Positions 4,616 to 48,300 of a stretch of 64,000 nt of DNA are shown here, one piece after another; position 1 is the stretch's first letter; each line of letters starts with the position of its first letter. Made by a program: the position numbers and the translations under genes. The DNA comes from a virus. The stretch spans positions 1-64,000 of the IMG/VR virus record IMGVR_UViG_3300034175_000063; one strand, given 5' to 3'. The notes below the pieces were generated by a model. The model was not told where the DNA came from. It saw nothing but the letters and a program-made list of their open reading frames with translations, and made no database searches.

Positions 4616-5728
4616 ATGGCTAAGAACCAAGCCCCCGACGTCGGGGCAAACCCACGCTTGCGCGTGAAAATCAGTCAGGCCGTCCGCATGGTCACCAAAG
4701 CCATCTCGTGCAAATTGGTGCCCATGATTCACGGCTCGCCGGCTATCGGAAAGTCCGGCATCGTGCACCAGATCGCAAAGGATTACAACCTGATGCTGAT
4801 CGACCTGCGTTTGAGCCAGTGCGACCCTACCGACCTGCTGGGCTTCCCACAGATCCTGGCCGCTATCAACCGCGCGGGCTACACGCCGATGGAAACATTC
4901 CCCATCGCCGGCGACGCCTATCCACTCAAGCTGGACAAGGAAGGCAAAGAAATTCTGGCTGCCGATGGGCGTCCGGAACGCTACTCCGGCTGGCTGCTGT
5001 TCCTCGACGAGTTCAACTCAGCGAGCGTGGCAGTGCAAGCTGCGGCCTACAAGATCGTTCTCGATCGCATGGTCGGCAAGTACCATCTGCATGAGAAGGT
5101 GGCCGTGGTCTGTGCGGGTAACCTGGAAACCGACGGCGCCATCGTTGAGCAAATGAGCACTGCACTGCAGTCGCGCATTCTGCACCTCGAACTCATGGTC
5201 GACTTGCCGGAATGGATCCGCTGGGCCGGCCCTGCCGGCATCGACTACCGCATCCAGAGCTATCTGGAATCGCAGCCGTCGGCGTTGTATTCGTTCCGTC
5301 CGGATCACAGCGATCGCACCTACAGCTCGCCGCGTACCTGGGAATTCGCCAACCGCATCATCAACAAGTACGACGTCAAGGACGAAGACGCCTTGCCGAT
5401 GTTGAGCGGTTGTATCACCGAAGGTGTGGCCCGGCCATTCCTGACGTTCTGCGACATCTTCGACAAGCTGCCGTCGATCCACGACATCCTGATGTCGCCG
5501 AAAAGCATTCGTGTTCCCGGCGAGCCGAGCATCCTGTTCGCCATGTGCGGCAGTATCGCCCACCATGCCACGATGGTGAACATCGGCGGCCTGCTCGACT
5601 ACATCAAACGCATGCCCCTGGAATTCCAGGTCGTGTGTGTTCGGATGACCCTGGCCCGCAACACCTCCATGGTCAATGATGCAGACATGCAGAAGTGGCT
5701 GGCCATGCACGCTGAAGAGCTGTTCTAA
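4616..5728 (+). CDS. MoxR-like AAA ATPase (N4 gp24-like)
   Basis: Walker A GSPAIGKS, Walker B LFLDEFN, CAGN, STALQSR, SPRTWE. Confidence 0.85.
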   Translation: MAKNQAPDVGANPRLRVKISQAVRMVTKAISCKLVPMIHGSPAIGKSGIVHQIAKDYNLMLIDLRLSQCDPTDLLGFPQILAAINRAGYTPMETFPIAGDAYPLKLDKEGKEILAADGRPERYSGWLLFLDEFNSASVAVQAAAYKIVLDRMVGKYHLHEKVAVVCAGNLETDGAIVEQMSTALQSRILHLELMVDLPEWIRWAGPAGIDYRIQSYLESQPSALYSFRPDHSDRTYSSPRTWEFANRIINKYDVKDEDALPMLSGCITEGVARPFLTFCDIFDKLPSIHDILMSPKSIRVPGEPSILFAMCGSIAHHATMVNIGGLLDYIKRMPLEFQVVCVRMTLARNTSMVNDADMQKWLAMHAEELF

Positions 5729-5798
5729 GCTGCACCGTTTTACCAACCGGGGCTTCGGCCCCATTCATCGCAGTACCCACCCTGAAAGAAGAACCACC

Positions 5799-6200
5799 AT
5801 GAAAAAATCCTTCGCATTTTTCGCATCCGTCCTGATGATCCTGTCGTTGTCGATGGGGCTCACCGCTTGCGGTAAGCAAACCGTCGAACAGCGTGTCTCC
5901 GCCAACATCAAGGACGGTGTGCACGCGCTGACCAGCGAAGAGCGTCAGCTGGCCGAGACGAACGCCAAGCAGTTTTACAACCGTTCGTTCCCAAACGGCA
6001 CCGACGTGGCCGGCGAGCTCACCACGGCCAAAGGTATGTTCCTCGATTGCCGCCCATCGGACAGCAATGCCAACGGCATGGTTACCTGCCACGGCATCAT
6101 GCCCAAGATGAAAGGTGGCTTCGACGACAAGTCCACCCGTTACTGCGGCTACCGTCCTGAACTGGTCGGCTGCAGCGACGAAGACACCGTTCCAAAGTAA
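5799..6200 (+). CDS. Putative lipoprotein
   Basis: Signal peptide MKKSFAFFASVLMILSLSMG plus lipobox LTAC; four further Cys residues. Confidence 0.75.
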   Translation: MKKSFAFFASVLMILSLSMGLTACGKQTVEQRVSANIKDGVHALTSEERQLAETNAKQFYNRSFPNGTDVAGELTTAKGMFLDCRPSDSNANGMVTCHGIMPKMKGGFDDKSTRYCGYRPELVGCSDEDTVPK

Positions 6201-6956: not shown

Positions 6957-7246
6957 GCATCGAAGACATCCCTGAGCGTCGCAAGACCCCAGACGAGAAC
7001 GCACGCGCACTCGTCGGCATTCGTGCAGCGATCACCAACTACTACCTGGACCTGGACGCTCGCAAACACGGCAGCGTTGCAATGGACCTGGCCTTCAGCA
7101 AGATCGAGCGTATCCTCGGCATGAGCTGGGAAGACCACAAAGAAACCGTGCGTGAAGTCACGCAGCTGGCGCCGAACAAAGCCATGGAACTGCACAATAT
7201 GTTTCAGGACACCCTGATGACCACTGCCTACCGTGGAGCGAAATAG
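6953..7246 (+). CDS. Hypothetical protein
   Basis: ATGA overlap with the HNH gene; SD GAGGA. Confidence 0.65.
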   Translation: MSIEDIPERRKTPDENARALVGIRAAITNYYLDLDARKHGSVAMDLAFSKIERILGMSWEDHKETVREVTQLAPNKAMELHNMFQDTLMTTAYRGAK

Positions 7247-7249
7247 ACC

Positions 7250-7447
7250 ATGGCCCACCTGCTCTCCTACACCAGTGGGGTCGTGGGGCATGGCCTGTCG
7301 AATGACCTGGACACCGCAATAGACCAGGCGATTGACCGCTGTACCGAAATGGGTATGGGCGCCAACATCCTCAACCGATCCACCTCCGTTGTCCTCGCCG
7401 TCATCACCCCGACCAGCGAGGGCTTTAAAGCCAAGAAAATGGAGTAA
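7250..7447 (+). CDS. Hypothetical protein
   Basis: Tightly packed in the operon; GGAG upstream. Confidence 0.55.
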   Translation: MAHLLSYTSGVVGHGLSNDLDTAIDQAIDRCTEMGMGANILNRSTSVVLAVITPTSEGFKAKKME

Positions 7448-7451
7448 CACC

Positions 7452-7742
7452 ATGTCCGAACGCACCATCGTCACCACGTATTACGGCCCGTCGGCCGGCC
7501 GCGGCAAACAGAAGCCAAAGATCAAAGTCACCCGCGGATCCCGCATCGGTGAGTGCCTGCCGAACGTCACCCGCATGCTCACCCAGAATCTGAAGGGTGA
7601 TGCTGTGGTAGCCGAGGTGCACGATGAGATGTTCGGCGAGCTGCTGCTCGTTGTCACCTACTTCCCCGGCGAAAAGCTGCAGGTCACCTTCGAGCAGGAC
7701 GTCACCCGGCCCGTGTGCATCATCACTGGCTTGGAGGACTGA
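7452..7742 (+). CDS. Hypothetical protein
   Basis: Start MSERTIV after GGAG. Confidence 0.65.
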   Translation: MSERTIVTTYYGPSAGRGKQKPKIKVTRGSRIGECLPNVTRMLTQNLKGDAVVAEVHDEMFGELLLVVTYFPGEKLQVTFEQDVTRPVCIITGLED

Positions 7743-7744
7743 TC

Positions 7745-8113
7745 ATGACAACCGATGACACCCTCGACTTCGATGTGAATGACCTTCATGTCGACACCTT
7801 CCGCGCGCCGGGTCAGGGAGGCTGGTCCACGAAACCGGAAACCGTGGTGCGTATCACCCACATGCCTTCGCGCTTCTCGATAACCGAGGGCGACGATCGC
7901 AGCCAGCACCGCAACAAGGTAGAAGCCCTCCGCAAACTTCGTATCATCAAGGCATTCTGCCCTGAAGTTTTTGAATCCCCACCACCCCCCAAGTTCCCTG
8001 ATCACGCGGCCCTCCGCAAAGCATGGGACGACTACCGTGGCGACGCCGAGCTGACGCTTGACGATGCCTTCATCTTCGCTGCTGGCTACATTGCCGGCGC
8101 CTCTAACAAATAG
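7745..8113 (+). CDS. Peptide-chain release factor (RF-1 family GGQ domain)-like protein, GGW variant
   Basis: DLHVDTFRAPGQGGWSTKPETVVRITHMPS...DDRSQHRNKVEAL aligns by eye with RF domain 3 (DLRID.YRASGAGGQHVN.TESAVRITH.PT...ERSQH.NK..A); SD GGAGG. Confidence 0.8.
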   Translation: MTTDDTLDFDVNDLHVDTFRAPGQGGWSTKPETVVRITHMPSRFSITEGDDRSQHRNKVEALRKLRIIKAFCPEVFESPPPPKFPDHAALRKAWDDYRGDAELTLDDAFIFAAGYIAGASNK

Positions 8114-41390: not shown

Positions 41391-42161
41391 ATGAACATGC
41401 TCGCAAATCTGAAACTCGCTGACGGCGTTGACGGTGAAGAAAAAGACGTCCTCGGCGGTGGCCGCGGTCCCCTGGAGTCGGACGCATACCCTGCGACGAT
41501 CACCATGGCCTACATGAGCGAATCCGAAGGCGGCGCCACGGCCCTGAACATCACGGCCATGACCGAAGACGGCAAGGAAATTCGCGGCGCCATCTACGTG
41601 ACCTCGGGCCGTGCCAAAGGCCAGAAGACCACGTACGAAAAGGACGGCAAGACCTATCCGCTGCCTGGCTTCCTGCTGGTCAACAGCCTGTGCCAGCTGG
41701 CCACCGGCAAGGAAATCTCGCAGCTGGAAACCGAAGAAAAGGTCATCAAGCTGTACAACTTCGACGCCAAGGCTGAAGTCCCAACCAAGGTGCCTGTCGT
41801 TGTCGAGCTGCTGCAGAAGCAGATCGTCATCGGCCTGCTCAAGCAGACCGTGGACAAGTCGGCCAAGAACGACGCCGGCGTCTACGTGGCCACGGGCGAA
41901 ACCCGCGAAGAGAACGAGATCGACAAGTTCTTCTGCGCGCGTGACGGCTTTGAAAACCTGACGCTGACCGAAGTGAAGACCAAGGCAGCTGGTGGCGAAA
42001 TCGAAAAGCCATTCCACGCCGACTGGGTTGAAAAGAACAAAGGCCAGACCCGCAACAAAGCCAAGGGCGCTGCAGGTGGCGGCACGGCCGGTGCTCCAGG
42101 CAAAGCAGGCGCCGCGGCAGCAGGTGGCACTGCCAAGCCGAAGAGCTCGCTGTTCGGTTAA
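41391..42161 (+). CDS. ssb: Single-stranded DNA-binding protein (N4 gp45-like)
   Basis: N4 synteny; YPLPGF, LYNFDAKAEVPT, ENEIDKFF; Gly/Ala tail ending SLFG. Confidence 0.85.
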   Translation: MNMLANLKLADGVDGEEKDVLGGGRGPLESDAYPATITMAYMSESEGGATALNITAMTEDGKEIRGAIYVTSGRAKGQKTTYEKDGKTYPLPGFLLVNSLCQLATGKEISQLETEEKVIKLYNFDAKAEVPTKVPVVVELLQKQIVIGLLKQTVDKSAKNDAGVYVATGETREENEIDKFFCARDGFENLTLTEVKTKAAGGEIEKPFHADWVEKNKGQTRNKAKGAAGGGTAGAPGKAGAAAAGGTAKPKSSLFG

Positions 42162-43781: not shown

Positions 43782-44378
43782 ATGAACATTACCCTCAAAC
43801 AAGCTGACATCGAAAAGGCAGTTCGCCTGTACATCGAGCGTCAGGGCTTCCACCTGCTGAACAAAACCCTGTCCATCGACTTCTCGATGGGTCGCGGTGA
43901 GAACGGCTTGTCGGCGATCCTGACCATCGAAGACGCGGTGACCATCCCTGGCTACACCGACCAGACCGATCCGGTTGCTGGTATCAGCGCCGGCCCTTCG
44001 GCTGCAGTGCAAGCTCTGGCCGCGGCCGTCAGCCTGCCGGCAACCGAAACGGTCAAGCCGACCCAGCCTGAAGGGCTGACCAAGCGCGCAGCCGATCAGG
44101 TCATCCTGCCAGGCGGCGGTGAAGTCAAGCCAATGCTGAAAGCAGCGGCCGATCCGGATCCTGTCGCGGTTGTCGTTGACGAAGTGGTCGAAGTGGCCAA
44201 GGTCGCACCGGCCACGCTGGCTGAAGTCGCTGAAGCCGGCATCGCCGTTGCTGCAGTGGCCACGCAGGAAACCGAAGCGGCCGCGGCTGCTCCAGTTGCT
44301 GAAGCCAAGGTTGCTGAAGCTGCTCCAGCTCCAGTCGCCGAAGCACAAGCGAAACCGACCACCTCGCTGTTCGGTTAA
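43782..44378 (+). CDS. Hypothetical protein with an Ala/Glu-rich tail ending SLFG
   Basis: Folded N-terminus of ~50 aa plus a low-complexity linker. Confidence 0.75.
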   Translation: MNITLKQADIEKAVRLYIERQGFHLLNKTLSIDFSMGRGENGLSAILTIEDAVTIPGYTDQTDPVAGISAGPSAAVQALAAAVSLPATETVKPTQPEGLTKRAADQVILPGGGEVKPMLKAAADPDPVAVVVDEVVEVAKVAPATLAEVAEAGIAVAAVATQETEAAAAAPVAEAKVAEAAPAPVAEAQAKPTTSLFG

Positions 44379-44384
44379 TCGCCC

Positions 44385-44561
44385 ATGAATGTCCTCAAGT
44401 GGTTTGGCTGCGTCATTGCAGCCATCCTCTTGGTGGCAATCGTGATTGGCGTATATGCGTTCATCCACATCATCATCGCGGTCGTGACCGTGGTGTTCCT
44501 GGTGTGGATGGCTGCCATCGGCATTCGCGCTTACTTCAAGAGCCGACCGCGTAAAATGTAA
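44385..44561 (+). CDS. Small membrane protein (58 aa, not in ORF track)
   Basis: MNVLKWFGCVIAAILLVAIVIGVYAFIHIIIAVVTVVFLVWMAAIGIRAYFKSRPRKM. Confidence 0.7.
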   Translation: MNVLKWFGCVIAAILLVAIVIGVYAFIHIIIAVVTVVFLVWMAAIGIRAYFKSRPRKM

Positions 44562-44565
44562 TTCG

Positions 44566-45310
44566 CTGCCCACCACCCAGATAGGCTGGGGGCAGATTCA
44601 ACAGGATGGGGCACATCTACCTTCAAAAGACCGAAGGGCACGGGCGGGAACCCATTGTGGCGTGCTCCACCCTGTTGATGCAGGTCTTGTTAGTCGGCTG
44701 GACGACAATCCGTCCGTGAGTTCTTGTAACCTGGTGTGAAGCCGGGGAACAGCCACTTCACCTACGAGGTTCTGATCTGAAACGCTTGTGACCCCTGATA
44801 CGGGCATGGTTTAGCGCATCCATAAAACAGAGCATCAACACGTTAAGCAGCCCCGCGTCAGTGGGCAGCACCAACACCCGAGCGCCGGGACGGAGTAGGC
44901 CAGGAAATTTGTGGCCGAAACGTAGTCCCGCTACCTGTAGTCAAGGCAGGTCGCTCCGGTGTTGGAGATGGTGTAAGGCGCAAGCTGGCTGCGATGAAAG
45001 ACCTGGGCTATTCCCCAGCGTGAAATAAGCACGTCCAGAGGACCGGGTTCGATTCCCGGTATTCAACTAGAGGTATGCGGTTCGAGTCCGCTCGCTGGCC
45101 GAGATTAGGTAAATGCCATAGGGGTTCGAGTCCCCTTGCCCGGTAGCTTTATGCTTTACGGGACACGGGTGGGAGGCGGCTTGTAGTAGAATCACCGAGC
45201 AGCGGACAAGTCCAGTCCATCGTGAGGGTAGGCCAGCTGGCATCCCAAGCAATAGCGTAAACAAGACCGTGGGGAGGGTGCAACATAGTTCCACGTTAAG
45301 CTACAGTGCA
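44566..45310 (+). ncRNA. Candidate large structured ncRNA (possibly GOLLD-like) with three tRNA-type T-arms
   Basis: No credible ORF over ~790 nt; long stems 44598-44614/44662-44678 and 44871-44884/44952-44965; three G-TTCGANT-C hairpins; AGTA/GAA motif; ends at a terminator. Confidence 0.7.
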
Positions 45311-45315
45311 TCATT

Positions 45316-45352
45316 AAAGCCCCGGTCCTCCTCACAGAGTCCGGGGCTTTTC
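45316..45352. terminator. Likely bidirectional terminator between the ncRNA region and vRNAP
   Basis: AAAGCCCCGG...CCGGGGCTTT inverted repeat with A- and T-rich ends. Confidence 0.8.
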
Positions 45353-45355
45353 TCA

Positions 45356-48300
45356 TTACTGCCCGTTGTACACCGCCGTGGTGAATGGTCCGGTCAGCAG
45401 GCCCACCGTGGTCACCGAATCCAACGAGCCGAAGTAGCTCAGCGCGCCGGCGTTAAACGGATTGCCGAAGTGGTGGATGAAGCTCGAGTCCATCACCGTC
45501 GGCTGGTCCCCCAACATGTGCTCGGCCGCCATCAAGGCGAGTACCCGGCCAGGCGAGTCCTTATAAATACGTGCAAGCACCTTCTGGATGCGAACATAGT
45601 ATTTCGAGAACATGATCAACCCCGTGTCATTAGCGTACTGGATTTTCCGGTGCGTCGGGACGTCGTAGTTGATGAACGCTTCGGAAGCGCGCTGCACAGC
45701 TTGCTCATGGGTCATCGACTTGACGTCATGCTGGTACAGCGTGTACCGGGCCAGGAAGTCACTGATCTGCGTTGCGTAGCTCATCATCTTGTATGGCGCC
45801 GTGCTGTGGTGCATGGTGAGCAGCTGCACGCCTTTCAGGATGTGTGGGTTCACACCTTCGATGAAGCCGTCGACCTTTTCGTCGAACCGCGACTTGTACG
45901 AGTAGATGTCCTCATCGACGCCCACATCCTCAACGATGGTCGGCATCAGGCCGGCGTCGATCAGCGGACGGATCGGGTTGCGGGCCAGGCTGTCTTCCAA
46001 GCGTTGGATCAGGTAGGCGGCTTTGCTCGCATTCATGCCAGGTTCAAAGTGACCGATCGTCTGCTGGTGCTTCAAGGCGAACAGCTTGGCATTGTCCTGC
46101 TTGTATTCCCAGGCCGACTTGAACGCCACACGATGGCTGTCGAAGATCTGCTTCGGCGACACGCCCATCAAGAAAAGCTGCGACCAGTTCGACCGCAGGT
46201 TGCCCGTCATGGTCGACCACGATTTGACCACCAGGTTGGCCTTCGTCTCCTTGACGATCGCCTGCCAGATGTCTTCGGACTGGCGAGCACGCAGCTGGGC
46301 CTTGTCCTTGAAGGCATAGCTCATGATCTCGACGAACATGTTTTCGACGAAGCTGCGCTGTGCCTTTTCCTTTTCAAACACCGTGCCGATGCTGAGCTTG
46401 CGATAGCCGAAGTTCATGTCGAGGATGTCGTTGCGGACCAGCATGCCATCCTTGCCGAACAGGCTCTTGGCCAGCTGCTGGGTATCCCGCGGCAGCATGT
46501 CCCAGATTTCACGCAGCTGCGGATCAGCCGACGTCGGGCCGACCTGCAGATAGGCTTCCGGATGATCGGCAAAGTCCAGCTTGTACTGTTCGTGCAGAGC
46601 CTTGATGGCGTTGGCGTTCTGCACTTTCGACGCTACCTTGTCGAACGTGTTGCCGGCCATCGAGCCCAGCAGGTGATCGGTACGGTTGTCCCGGTTCAGC
46701 AGCTTGTCCTTGACGACGTTGCTCATCATGTAGCGGTAGTTGGTCACGTCACCGTTCGGGTTTAGCACTGGTGCCATGTGGGCTTCCTTGACCGCTGTTG
46801 GATCGAAGCCAGTACCAGTGAACATGCTTTGAATGGCCGGACGCTTACCGATCCGGATCGCTGCCATGTTCATCGCGTTCTGCTGGCCAGCCACCGATAC
46901 AGGGTGAGCACCGGTGATGACCTGGCTACCCTTGGCTTTGGAATCGGTCGTGCTGATGATGCCCGAGTTCCATTGTTTCAGGCCGCCGTCACGCAGCGAG
47001 TAGATCCGCTTTTGGTCAGATACCGGGTCCGCTGCGTCGCGCGGCAGGTAGCCGGGCATTGCCGTGTAACCTTTCTTGACCAGCTCGATACCCTCATCAT
47101 CGGTGGCCATCACCACCGTCATGTAGGGATCGTAAATCTCCGGGACGTAGCCTTTCATCTGCAGGGCTTCACTGTCCGAGAACAACTTGTCCTTGCTCTC
47201 GGCCTGCAATGCCGTGTGGGTCTTCATGATCATCTCGATGCCATGGCCACCGTCGGTGCGTGCTGCTTCAGCGGCAAACACCTCGGACAACATCTTCATG
47301 TCGACCCGGCTGGCGTACTTCAGCGCGTAGAGCGAAGCCAGACGATCAATGATCGGGGCGGCAGCCAGAGCCTGGGCCGGCGTGACACTCATGCCCGTGC
47401 CATACAGGCGGGCGATGTTCCCGGCGTTCATCAGCTGGTGGGCCGTGGCCACGCGGCTGGTGGCCATGAAGTAGCCCAGCCCTTTCGCCGAGTTGATGTA
47501 GAACCGGTTCATCTTGCCACCGGCAACGAGCTGAGCTTCATGCGAGTCGATCTCCGTCTGCAGGTCACTCGTGCTGTTGACCAGGTTCTGCAGCTGGGCC
47601 ACCGTGTAGGTGCCGAGCAGGGACTGCATGTCACCACGCAGGACCACCGCGGTGAGTGCTTTCTTCTGGTCGTCGGTCAGATCCTCACCTGCATTGACGA
47701 AGGATCCCGATACCGCTTTCGAGATGTTCGAGATGGTGTCCTTGCGGATACCCTCCAAGTGCTTGGTGCCACGCAGCAGGAAGTGGTAGACCTTGTTCAT
47801 GTCGGTTGCACCGCGTACTTCGTTCATCAGCGATGCTGCAACGCCGAGCTGGCCGGTCATCGTCTTGTCGCGCAAGCGAAGGTAGGCATCCATGATGGCG
47901 TCGACGCGATCGCCGGCAACCGCCGACATGACATTGCCACCCAGCTTCACGAAGGCGTTACCGCTGTTCTGGAAGAAGGGCTTCTTGCCGAAGGCTTCCA
48001 CCGCCGCGCGCACCGAGTCGCTCATGTCTTCGGCCGTGTCGGCGATGCGGTTCAGCGTCTGCGAGGCGCCGGACGTGATCCGGTTGTGACGCTTGGCTTC
48101 GATCTCGACCATCTGCTTGACCAGGGCGTTCAGCTTCTTGTCAGCCATCTGGCCGCGGAAGGTCTTCGTCAGGCGGCCGGCCACCCAGCTCATGATCGTG
48201 TTGAAGATCTTGTTGAGCCGTTCGTTGAAACCCATGCTTGGATTGTTCGTGGCGCCGGTGGCAGTGTGAAACTGCAGTTGCTCGCGGAAGCCAGAATGCA

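Follow-up and report, generated by a model that had tools for sequence, protein, structure and literature searches.

We analyzed a window of 64,000 nt of viral DNA (positions 1 to 64,000 of IMG/VR record IMGVR_UViG_3300034175_000063), in which a first-pass annotation, made from the letters alone, had proposed one large structured noncoding RNA at 44566–45310. The source record is a complete 77.6-kb virus genome with terminal repeats and belongs to an N4-like phage, whose virion RNA polymerase (vRNAP) is only ~39% identical to that of the best isolate (tblastn; 460 Schitoviridae records matched). At the locus in question, 794 bases separate the stop codon of a gene for a small membrane protein of 58 amino acids (aa) (44561) from the convergent vRNAP stop codon (45356), and small hydrophobic open reading frames (ORFs) homologous to the 58-aa gene occupy the same place in the relatives L002, L027, L065, and L013. 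We find that the intervening stretch carries + strand RNA structure and is built of modules, that it lies where related phages keep tRNAs, and that one of its modules belongs to an RNA family with two T-arms (two-T-arm, or 2T, RNA), which is widespread in phages, uncatalogued, and absent from Rfam 15.

Results

A Noncoding Stretch Between Convergent Genes

The run from 44598 to 45121 is the longest in the window without a stop-free frame of at least 100 aa in any of the six frames, and in this sense the earlier description of the region as the only long ORF-free stretch is correct; no other stretch of at least 200 nt in the window is without an 80-aa open frame. The proposed noncoding nature and + strand orientation are likewise borne out, by the lack of a long frame, by T-loops on the + strand, by G-U pairs, and by the strand bias of a covariance model described below. 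Canonical T-arms (G53-C61 closing pair, UUCRANY loop) are present in three copies, at 45043–45059, 45077–45091, and 45120–45136, and the pattern GGTTCGANTCC occurs three times, always on the + strand, against 0.09 occurrences expected. As had been predicted, the region ends at an intrinsic terminator, a hairpin at 45316–45350 followed by a T run, which is conserved in L002, where a C/G pair has become U/A by compensatory change. This single terminator ends the whole island, and none is evident inside it.

Module Content and Order Differ Among Relatives

The same locus was gathered from relatives by two routes, using either the vRNAP C-terminus or a conserved 198-aa protein encoded upstream; a first metagenome scan with the vRNAP C-terminus returned no relative. 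In L002 and L003, whose vRNAP C-terminus is 93% identical to that of the window phage, only 45178–45355 (91% identity) and a 31-nt box are shared by BLAST, and a tRNA-Tyr, a 68-aa ORF, and other tRNA-like RNAs lie between the shared parts. In L065 (80% identical), the order differs from that in the window: hairpin A, the three-way-junction (TWJ) RNA, further elements, a long stem resembling module B, module C, further elements, and the 2T RNA. Hairpin A is joined directly to the TWJ RNA in L027, and in L010 (62% identical) the TWJ and 2T RNAs are split by a module also found in L002. A metagenomic contig (sequencing run X4) is identical to the window up to 44677, carries 266 other letters in place of 44678–45119, and resumes at 45120, its synteny break falling exactly at the end of module B (44677/44678). 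No module is common to all relatives: the TWJ and 2T RNAs are each absent from L002 and L009, and for module F, BLAST finds no copy in L010 and its presence in L065 is doubtful. The single conserved architecture of ~750 nt envisaged in the first-pass annotation is contradicted by the little that L002 and L003 share with the window, by the differing module order, and by the swapped segment of the metagenomic contig.

At the same locus, Pseudomonas phage 98PfluR60PP carries a tRNA-Arg and three T-arm-bearing stretches resembling pseudo-tRNAs. Since both tRNAs and swapped modules occur here in relatives, the locus is the lineage's tRNA slot, filled with exchangeable cassettes, in agreement with the earlier view of the location as a slot where phages keep tRNAs.

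Several further elements were observed in relatives. The genome of 98PfluR60PP (NC_070866) has two unannotated gaps of ~0.8–0.9 kb (5300–6071 and 6987–7891); its tRNA-Arg(UCU), itself unannotated, and the three T-arm stretches lie in the first, and one of these stretches looks like a tRNA with an expanded anticodon arm. Between the terminator and the vRNAP stop codon of L002 (5205–5300, minus strand) lies an element of ~88 nt, absent from the window, with a 7-bp acceptor stem of the tRNA-Ala or transfer-messenger RNA (tmRNA) type (G3-U70), discriminator A, and an encoded CCA, and without a canonical T-arm. A tRNA-like gene present in L002 (5482–5596, minus strand) and L027 (1219–1333) has a class-II-type D-arm, a T-arm, a G3-U70 acceptor, and a 20-nt "anticodon loop"; the L002 copy encodes ACCA, the L027 copy matches tmRNA weakly (RF00023, 22 bits), and ARAGORN makes no call. 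The word (U)GUAGUAG or CAGUAGUA recurs at module borders (window 45178–45187, L002 ~5470, L065 ~10547, L027 ~1338, and L009 ~5222) and may be a processing or junction signal. The upstream 198-aa protein (43782–44378 and 42137–42161) has a conserved N-terminal domain, MNITLKQ..GRG.NGLSA, followed by a long Ala-rich linker and a C-terminal T(T/S)SLFG tail that is invariant across 14 relatives; it is without a Pfam family, and its PHROG matches are weak only.

A Phage RNA Family with Two T-Arms

The 2T RNA is laid out as T-arm1, a UCGC linker, the 5' strand of helix P1, GAGAUUNGGUAA, T-arm2, a purine-rich strand, and the 3' strand of P1, which pairs the strand just 5' of GAGAUU with a CGGYCA strand ~60–100 nt downstream. 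The window copy conforms to this layout, with all three helices formed, and the A-R-..-G-G-U-A strand of the family fits the D-loop consensus.

The lead to the family came from a blastn comparison of the region with 50,697 phage records, where the single match was one of 43 nt to E. coli phage fHy-Eco03. A search pattern (T-loop, 9–13 nt, CCGAGAUU, 1–2 nt, GGUAA) matched 39 IMG/VR contigs against ~1 expected, and the family recurs in ~37 IMG/VR contigs; a stricter pattern gave no match in IMG/VR, and the looser one was needed. When the pattern was run over 596 Gb of prokaryote genomes, six places were matched, five of them without a T-stem and the sixth a phage contig. Carriers include N4-like phages (the window phage, L065, and L010), isolates of Rosemountvirus and Loughboroughvirus that infect Salmonella or E. 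coli (BP63, SE4, S1, and fHy-Eco03), and jumbo phages of 240–410 kb, in which the RNA sits inside tRNA arrays. Genomic settings thus vary, from tRNA arrays to positions between structural genes.

In an alignment of 22 sequences with 15 pairs, 91.6% of pairings were standard, compared with 33–50% when the partners were slid. Nine of the 15 pairs changed on both sides, and none of 500 shuffles reached the observed covariation. A covariance model built from this 22-member alignment (R2) recovered nine loci left out of building and delimits the window copy as 45066–45186.

A canonical tRNA (Arg, Gln, Phe, or Met) ends 0–1 nt before the 2T RNA at 9 of 34 distinct loci, and at 3 of the 34 a tRNA begins right after it; from this we infer that the 2T RNA occupies a tRNA slot and that its ends coincide with tRNA-processing sites. 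Such a start next to a tRNA is frequent, not defining: the window copy has no tRNA directly 5', only an orphan T-arm 16 nt upstream. In other phages, the RNA stands alone between tRNA genes as a unit of ~105 nt. A blastn search of the jumbo-phage gap against phage records gave no match. We found no paper describing the family in the literature, and uncurated catalogues (e.g., PMC10690425) may contain it. Just 3' of the 2T RNA, a further hairpin, of the form GAC-N-GC-stem-GGAAAGA-stem, is conserved in one subgroup (L108, L110, L114, L120, and L122); the same GGAAAGA hairpin is present in N4-like L009 (~5398–5425), itself without a 2T RNA.

Helices of the Other Modules

Compensatory changes maintain helices in parts of the stretch, which sustains the proposal of conserved RNA structure made in the first-pass annotation. 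Module A contains the hairpin that it had drawn at 44566–44595; of 13 predicted pairs, 3 show compensatory changes among four sequences. Module B contains the 17-bp stem described between 44598–44614 and 44662–44678, which is 88% complementary. Stems of different sequence take the position of module B in relatives, one of 18 bp around 111 nt in L065 and one of 15 bp around 148 nt in L002. A reading of module B as a tRNA-Ala-like acceptor (G3-U70 and then ACC) was rejected, as it is not conserved in L002.

When module C was compared with its L065 counterpart, 6 of 54 predicted pairs had changed in compensatory fashion, 9 had changed on one side, and none was broken (two sequences). Six bases, 44673–44678, serve both in the 3' strand of module B and in the stem that closes module C. 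The B and C helices (44598–44678 and 44673–44842) are mutually exclusive in the window, and the same exclusion, in other sequence, is possible in L065 (10755–10901 and 10896–11066) and in L002 (6456–6232, minus strand); this strand sharing may be a switch or may result from sequential folding. The box sequence (44839–44869) is confined in this window to this locus, and CACGUUAAGC was rejected as a phage promoter word on account of its locus-only occurrence.

The TWJ RNA is closed by a 13-bp stem and has two arms, the long one bearing an 11-nt loop of the GGAAAU type and the short one the invariant loop UAGUCAAGG. Across four sequences, 6 of its 28 pairs are compensatory and essentially none is broken. 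The corresponding covariance model (R1) scores 115–125 bits on the + strand and ~21 bits on the − strand (window copy, 121 bits on +), and it found no copy in any other relative; the invariant G-U pairs would become A-C on the opposite strand. A pattern for the TWJ loop matched 44 times in IMG/VR, with 42 matches due to chance and 2 real. The annotated stem (44871–44884 with 44952–44965) does close a three-way junction, in which GGGAC/GUCCC and an AGUA/GAA internal loop occur. This loop-E-like AGUA/GAA element is present in the window, but the three homologous junction RNAs do not conserve it. Similarly, the GCAGC (44847) and GCUGC (44988) segments exist as annotated, but their pairing cannot be conserved, because the neighbors of the junction RNA differ in relatives. 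A hammerhead core in the TWJ RNA was considered and rejected, since the core deviates at two positions and the strands of the junction are not long enough.

Segment E, which contains the orphan T-arm, had no homolog in the relatives. Window positions 45045–45132 align at 74% with L081 3886–3974, in which the T-arm at this place is part of a genuine tRNA-Arg(UCU), and the orphan T-arm is possibly a tRNA relic. In module F, 4 of 23 pairs are compensatory (three sequences), and a 2-nt indel between the window and L002 argues against coding. A pattern scan for module F matched only L002, L003, and L009. The coordinates of all features are given in Table 1.

Table 1. Features of the island and its flanking genes, in window coordinates (z, z-score of the minimum free energy of folding)
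Feature	Position	Strand	Remarks
Small membrane-protein gene, 58 aa	44385..44561	+	ORF list; last protein gene 5' of the RNA island
Module A, hairpin with conserved AGAUAGG-type loop, directly 3' of the stop codon	44566..44597	+	kept in L027, L065, L009; z −3.75
Module B, 17-bp stem closing a 47-nt insert	44598..44678	+	inverted repeat; z −3.7
Module C, ~170-nt multihelix domain with 9-bp closing stem	44673..44842	+	78% identical to L065 10896–11090; z −0.6
Box, CACGUUAA, then 7-bp hairpin with 9-nt loop CGCGUCAGU	44839..44869	+	recurs before tRNA-Tyr of L002 and twice in L065
TWJ RNA, 95 nt	44871..44965	+	homologs in L027, L065, L010; z −4.9
Segment E, two small hairpins and an orphan canonical T-arm	44966..45066	+	stem 45043–45047/45055–45059, loop UUCGAUU
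2T RNA, ~110 nt	45074..45182	+	model R2, 78 bits, E ~1e-17 (E-values of covariance models are rough)
2T T-arm1	45077–45091	+	component of 2T RNA
2T helix P1	45096–45101 with 45177–45182	+	closing helix
2T D-loop-like strand, AGAUUAGGUAA	45102–45112	+	component of 2T RNA
2T T-arm2	45120–45136	+	component of 2T RNA
2T variable hairpin	~45140–45162	+	component of 2T RNA
Module F, lineage-restricted 3' block	45183..45315	+	91% identical to L002/L003, 78% to L009
Bidirectional intrinsic terminator	45316..45355		10-bp perfect inverted repeat and T run; between the island (+) and the vRNAP gene (−)
vRNAP gene, 3472 aa	45356..55774	−	ORF list; convergent with the island

Folding Energy and Known RNA Families

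The minimum free energy (MFE) z-score of the whole region was −2.7 on both strands, while two 754-nt coding controls from the same window gave −1.9 to −4.4, so the region as a whole does not fold better than controls. Locally outstanding values (−3.7 to −4.9) were confined to hairpin A, module B, and the three-way junction; for these three parts the earlier description of the stretch as densely self-complementary holds beyond chance, whereas the whole region stays within the range of the coding controls.

A cmscan of the window against Rfam 15 at the gathering threshold returned nothing, and a scan of 44300–45500 at E up to 10 returned chance-level fragments only, with no GOLLD, ROOL, YrlA, tmRNA, or tRNA. 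The first-pass annotation was therefore right that no catalogued family matches, and a GOLLD or ROOL identity fails even at this permissive threshold. ROOL and YrlA had no Rfam match in the relatives or the other 2T carriers either, and the sole cmscan match in a test for tmRNA was a T-arm fragment of 9.9 bits. ARAGORN reported zero tRNA genes and no tmRNA in the window, with noise only when thresholds were lowered to 70%, and RF00005 at E up to 1 found no tRNA in the whole 77.6-kb genome. A cloverleaf with acceptor stem and anticodon arm was found in the region by neither ARAGORN nor RF00005.

Discussion

We consider it probable (roughly 60%) that 44562–45355 is a + strand noncoding RNA island in the lineage's tRNA slot, a string of independently folding modules that are exchanged by recombination and released by host tRNA-maturation enzymes, with the 2T RNA as a mimic of the tRNA elbow. 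Judged from sequence comparison, the island would comprise six or more self-closed modules (A, B, C, the box hairpin, the TWJ RNA, the orphan T-arm, the 2T RNA, and F), which recombination would add, remove, swap, and reorder between related phages, as happens with the genes of phage tRNA arrays. Transcription would probably reach the island by read-through from the upstream operon and run to the terminator at 45316–45350, and the modules would then be freed by the host enzymes that act on tRNA precursors, presumably RNase P, RNase Z/BN, and RNase E. Release by these enzymes is proposed because the 2T RNA elsewhere starts 0–1 nt after a tRNA and can directly precede another. More tentatively, the 2T RNA, which has neither acceptor end nor anticodon, may display a tRNA elbow formed by its T-loops and the D-loop-like GG. 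It might compete for or recruit elbow-reading host factors, for example by acting as a decoy or competitor for proteins that process, modify, or target tRNAs.

Several observations weigh against this interpretation. The MFE z-scores of module C, the 2T RNA, and module F are ~0, no better than shuffles. The homolog sets are small and related (four sequences for the TWJ RNA, two for C, three for F, and four for A), and their covariation counts are suggestive, not statistical proof. That the modules are independent RNAs, not domains of one RNA, is suggested solely by their shuffling; given the strand that they share, B and C may not be fully independent, and the orphan T-arm with the rest of segment E could be plain decay. 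When the ORFs lying up to 4 kb from 35 2T loci were compared all against all, no protein family common across lineages emerged. Finally, a search of sequencing runs found no RNA run containing the stretch; one library labeled RNA-Seq, probably DNA, covers only 45075–45266 at 90–95% identity and says nothing on expression.

It is also possible, though we think it unlikely, that the stretch makes one multidomain RNA of ~790 nt that works as a whole, like GOLLD or ROOL, with exchangeable peripheral domains and perhaps as a multimer or scaffold. The single terminator with none evident inside, the persistence of F as a 3' block in three lineages, and the B/C alternative pairing, which ties neighboring modules and is possible in three phages, all fit such an RNA; GOLLD and ROOL, too, lie near phage tRNA islands, and the 5' region of GOLLD is variable, with tRNAs sometimes in the linker (10.1101/2024.12.08.627333). 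However, no module or core is common to all relatives, and long-range contacts cannot be conserved where the order differs between them. The 2T RNA is found alone, as a ~105-nt unit between tRNA genes, in other phages, and neither a GOLLD or ROOL match nor a whole-region z-score better than the coding controls was obtained. A bolder version, which strikes us as distinctly unlikely, would have the island transcribed as a single ~0.8-kb RNA and functioning as a unit, a modular platform of tRNA-elbow mimics and aptamer-like domains, with interchangeable cassettes and the conserved B/C helix exchange as a folding switch; the 2T RNA would then be the founding member of a phage-specific class of tRNA mimics that lack an anticodon and disable a tRNA-directed process of the host. 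The scaffold and anti-defence-decoy functions suggested in the first-pass annotation are neither supported nor excluded by the analysis.

That the island is a decaying leftover of an earlier tRNA cluster, now without function and consisting of pseudo-tRNAs and spacer, is improbable. Real tRNAs at the locus in relatives, the alignment of the orphan T-arm with a real tRNA-Arg T-arm in jumbo phages, the lack of homologs of segment E, and the absence of a canonical tRNA from the genome would all suit a remnant, but helices in A, C, the TWJ RNA, F, and the 2T RNA are upheld by compensatory changes, the 2T RNA is conserved across unrelated phage groups, and a functionless 0.8 kb would be out of the ordinary in a window that has no other stretch of at least 200 nt without an 80-aa frame. 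We regard as very improbable a DNA-level or cis-acting element where the transcription arms converge, be it an origin or terminus of replication, a hot spot of recombination, or an elaborate 3' untranslated region that protects the upstream mRNA. G-U pairs and strand-specific T-loops indicate that one RNA strand is under selection, the genomic surroundings of the 2T module vary widely, and no origin-type repeats were found in the region, even though the stretch is hairpin-rich, lies exactly between convergent gene blocks, has hairpin A right after a stop codon, and undergoes cassette swapping indicative of frequent recombination. Hidden small protein genes are scarcely credible: open frames of, for example, 69, 55, and 75 aa do exist (44598–44807 on −, 44861–45028 on +, and 45067–45294 on −), but relatives keep none of them, as the modules in which they lie are shuffled or missing there, the 2-nt indel between the window and L002 falls inside the 75-aa frame, and substitutions track base-pairing, not codons.

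Phage tRNA islands hold additional stable RNAs whose roles are unsolved decades after RNAs C and D of T4 were found, and GOLLD and ROOL demonstrate that such loci can conceal remarkable RNA machines. Our analysis indicates that N4-like phages carry an island of this kind even without any tRNA, and that the island is an array of cassettes whose modules show selection at the RNA level. One cassette is a phage-specific family that extends across N4-like phages, jumbo phages, and cultured Salmonella and E. coli phages (BP63, SE4, and fHy-Eco03) and has hardly any parts beyond two T-arms and a D-loop-like strand; its N4-like setting and the accompanying cassettes are newly found here. Candidate roles for the 2T RNA include that of a decoy for tRNA-processing enzymes or tRNA-cleaving defence enzymes and one of the Ro/Y-RNA type. 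Since cultured carriers exist, the function of the putative tRNA-elbow mimic is directly testable.

Comparison with Known Systems

YrlA, a tRNA-like Y RNA of bacterial and mycobacteriophage origin (PMC4201824), resembles the 2T RNA in placing a T-arm before a D-arm-like element, the reverse of the order in tRNA, and in lacking an anticodon; in 22 of 22 aligned 2T members, T-arm1 is followed by the D-loop-like RCC-GAGAUUN-GGU. Many 2T copies also have (N)ACGAAUG just 5' of T-arm1, which resembles the Ro-binding word of YrlA, GNCGAAN0-1G, and one has GUCGAAUG; the window copy is without the CGAAUG word and has GAGGUAUG. Unlike YrlA, the 2T RNA has only 4–5 nt (UCGC), and no acceptor-like stem-loop, separating the T element from the D element, possesses a second T-arm and a different closing helix, and has no Rfam YrlA match. 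YrlA is encoded next to Ro60/Rsr (TROVE), and TROVE/Ro60 (PF05731) was absent from five carriers (the window genome and four records), with positive controls found.

GOLLD and ROOL share with the island an occurrence in phages next to or inside tRNA islands and a similar total length, and GOLLD has a variable 5' part with sometimes embedded tRNAs (10.1101/2024.12.08.627333). Unlike them, the island gives no covariance-model match, has no core in all relatives, and does not conserve the order of its parts.

The nearest analogues, ahead of YrlA, are the stable RNAs C and D of T4 (rnaC and rnaD, or species 1 and 2), small noncoding RNAs in a tRNA cluster that start 1 nt after a tRNA-Arg, one of them with a canonical T-arm, and the 2T RNA also directly follows tRNAs, including tRNA-Arg(UCU) in jumbo phages. 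T4, unlike the 2T carriers, is without the GAGAUUNGGUAA box and the T-arm/P1/T-arm layout; model R2 found nothing in T4 68000–76000, and homology with rnaC or rnaD is unsupported. Phage tRNA arrays differ from the island in that the latter has no cloverleaf, acceptor end, or anticodon, but the same locus holds tRNAs in relatives, self-closed units are gained, lost, and swapped in both, and the island has canonical T-arms.

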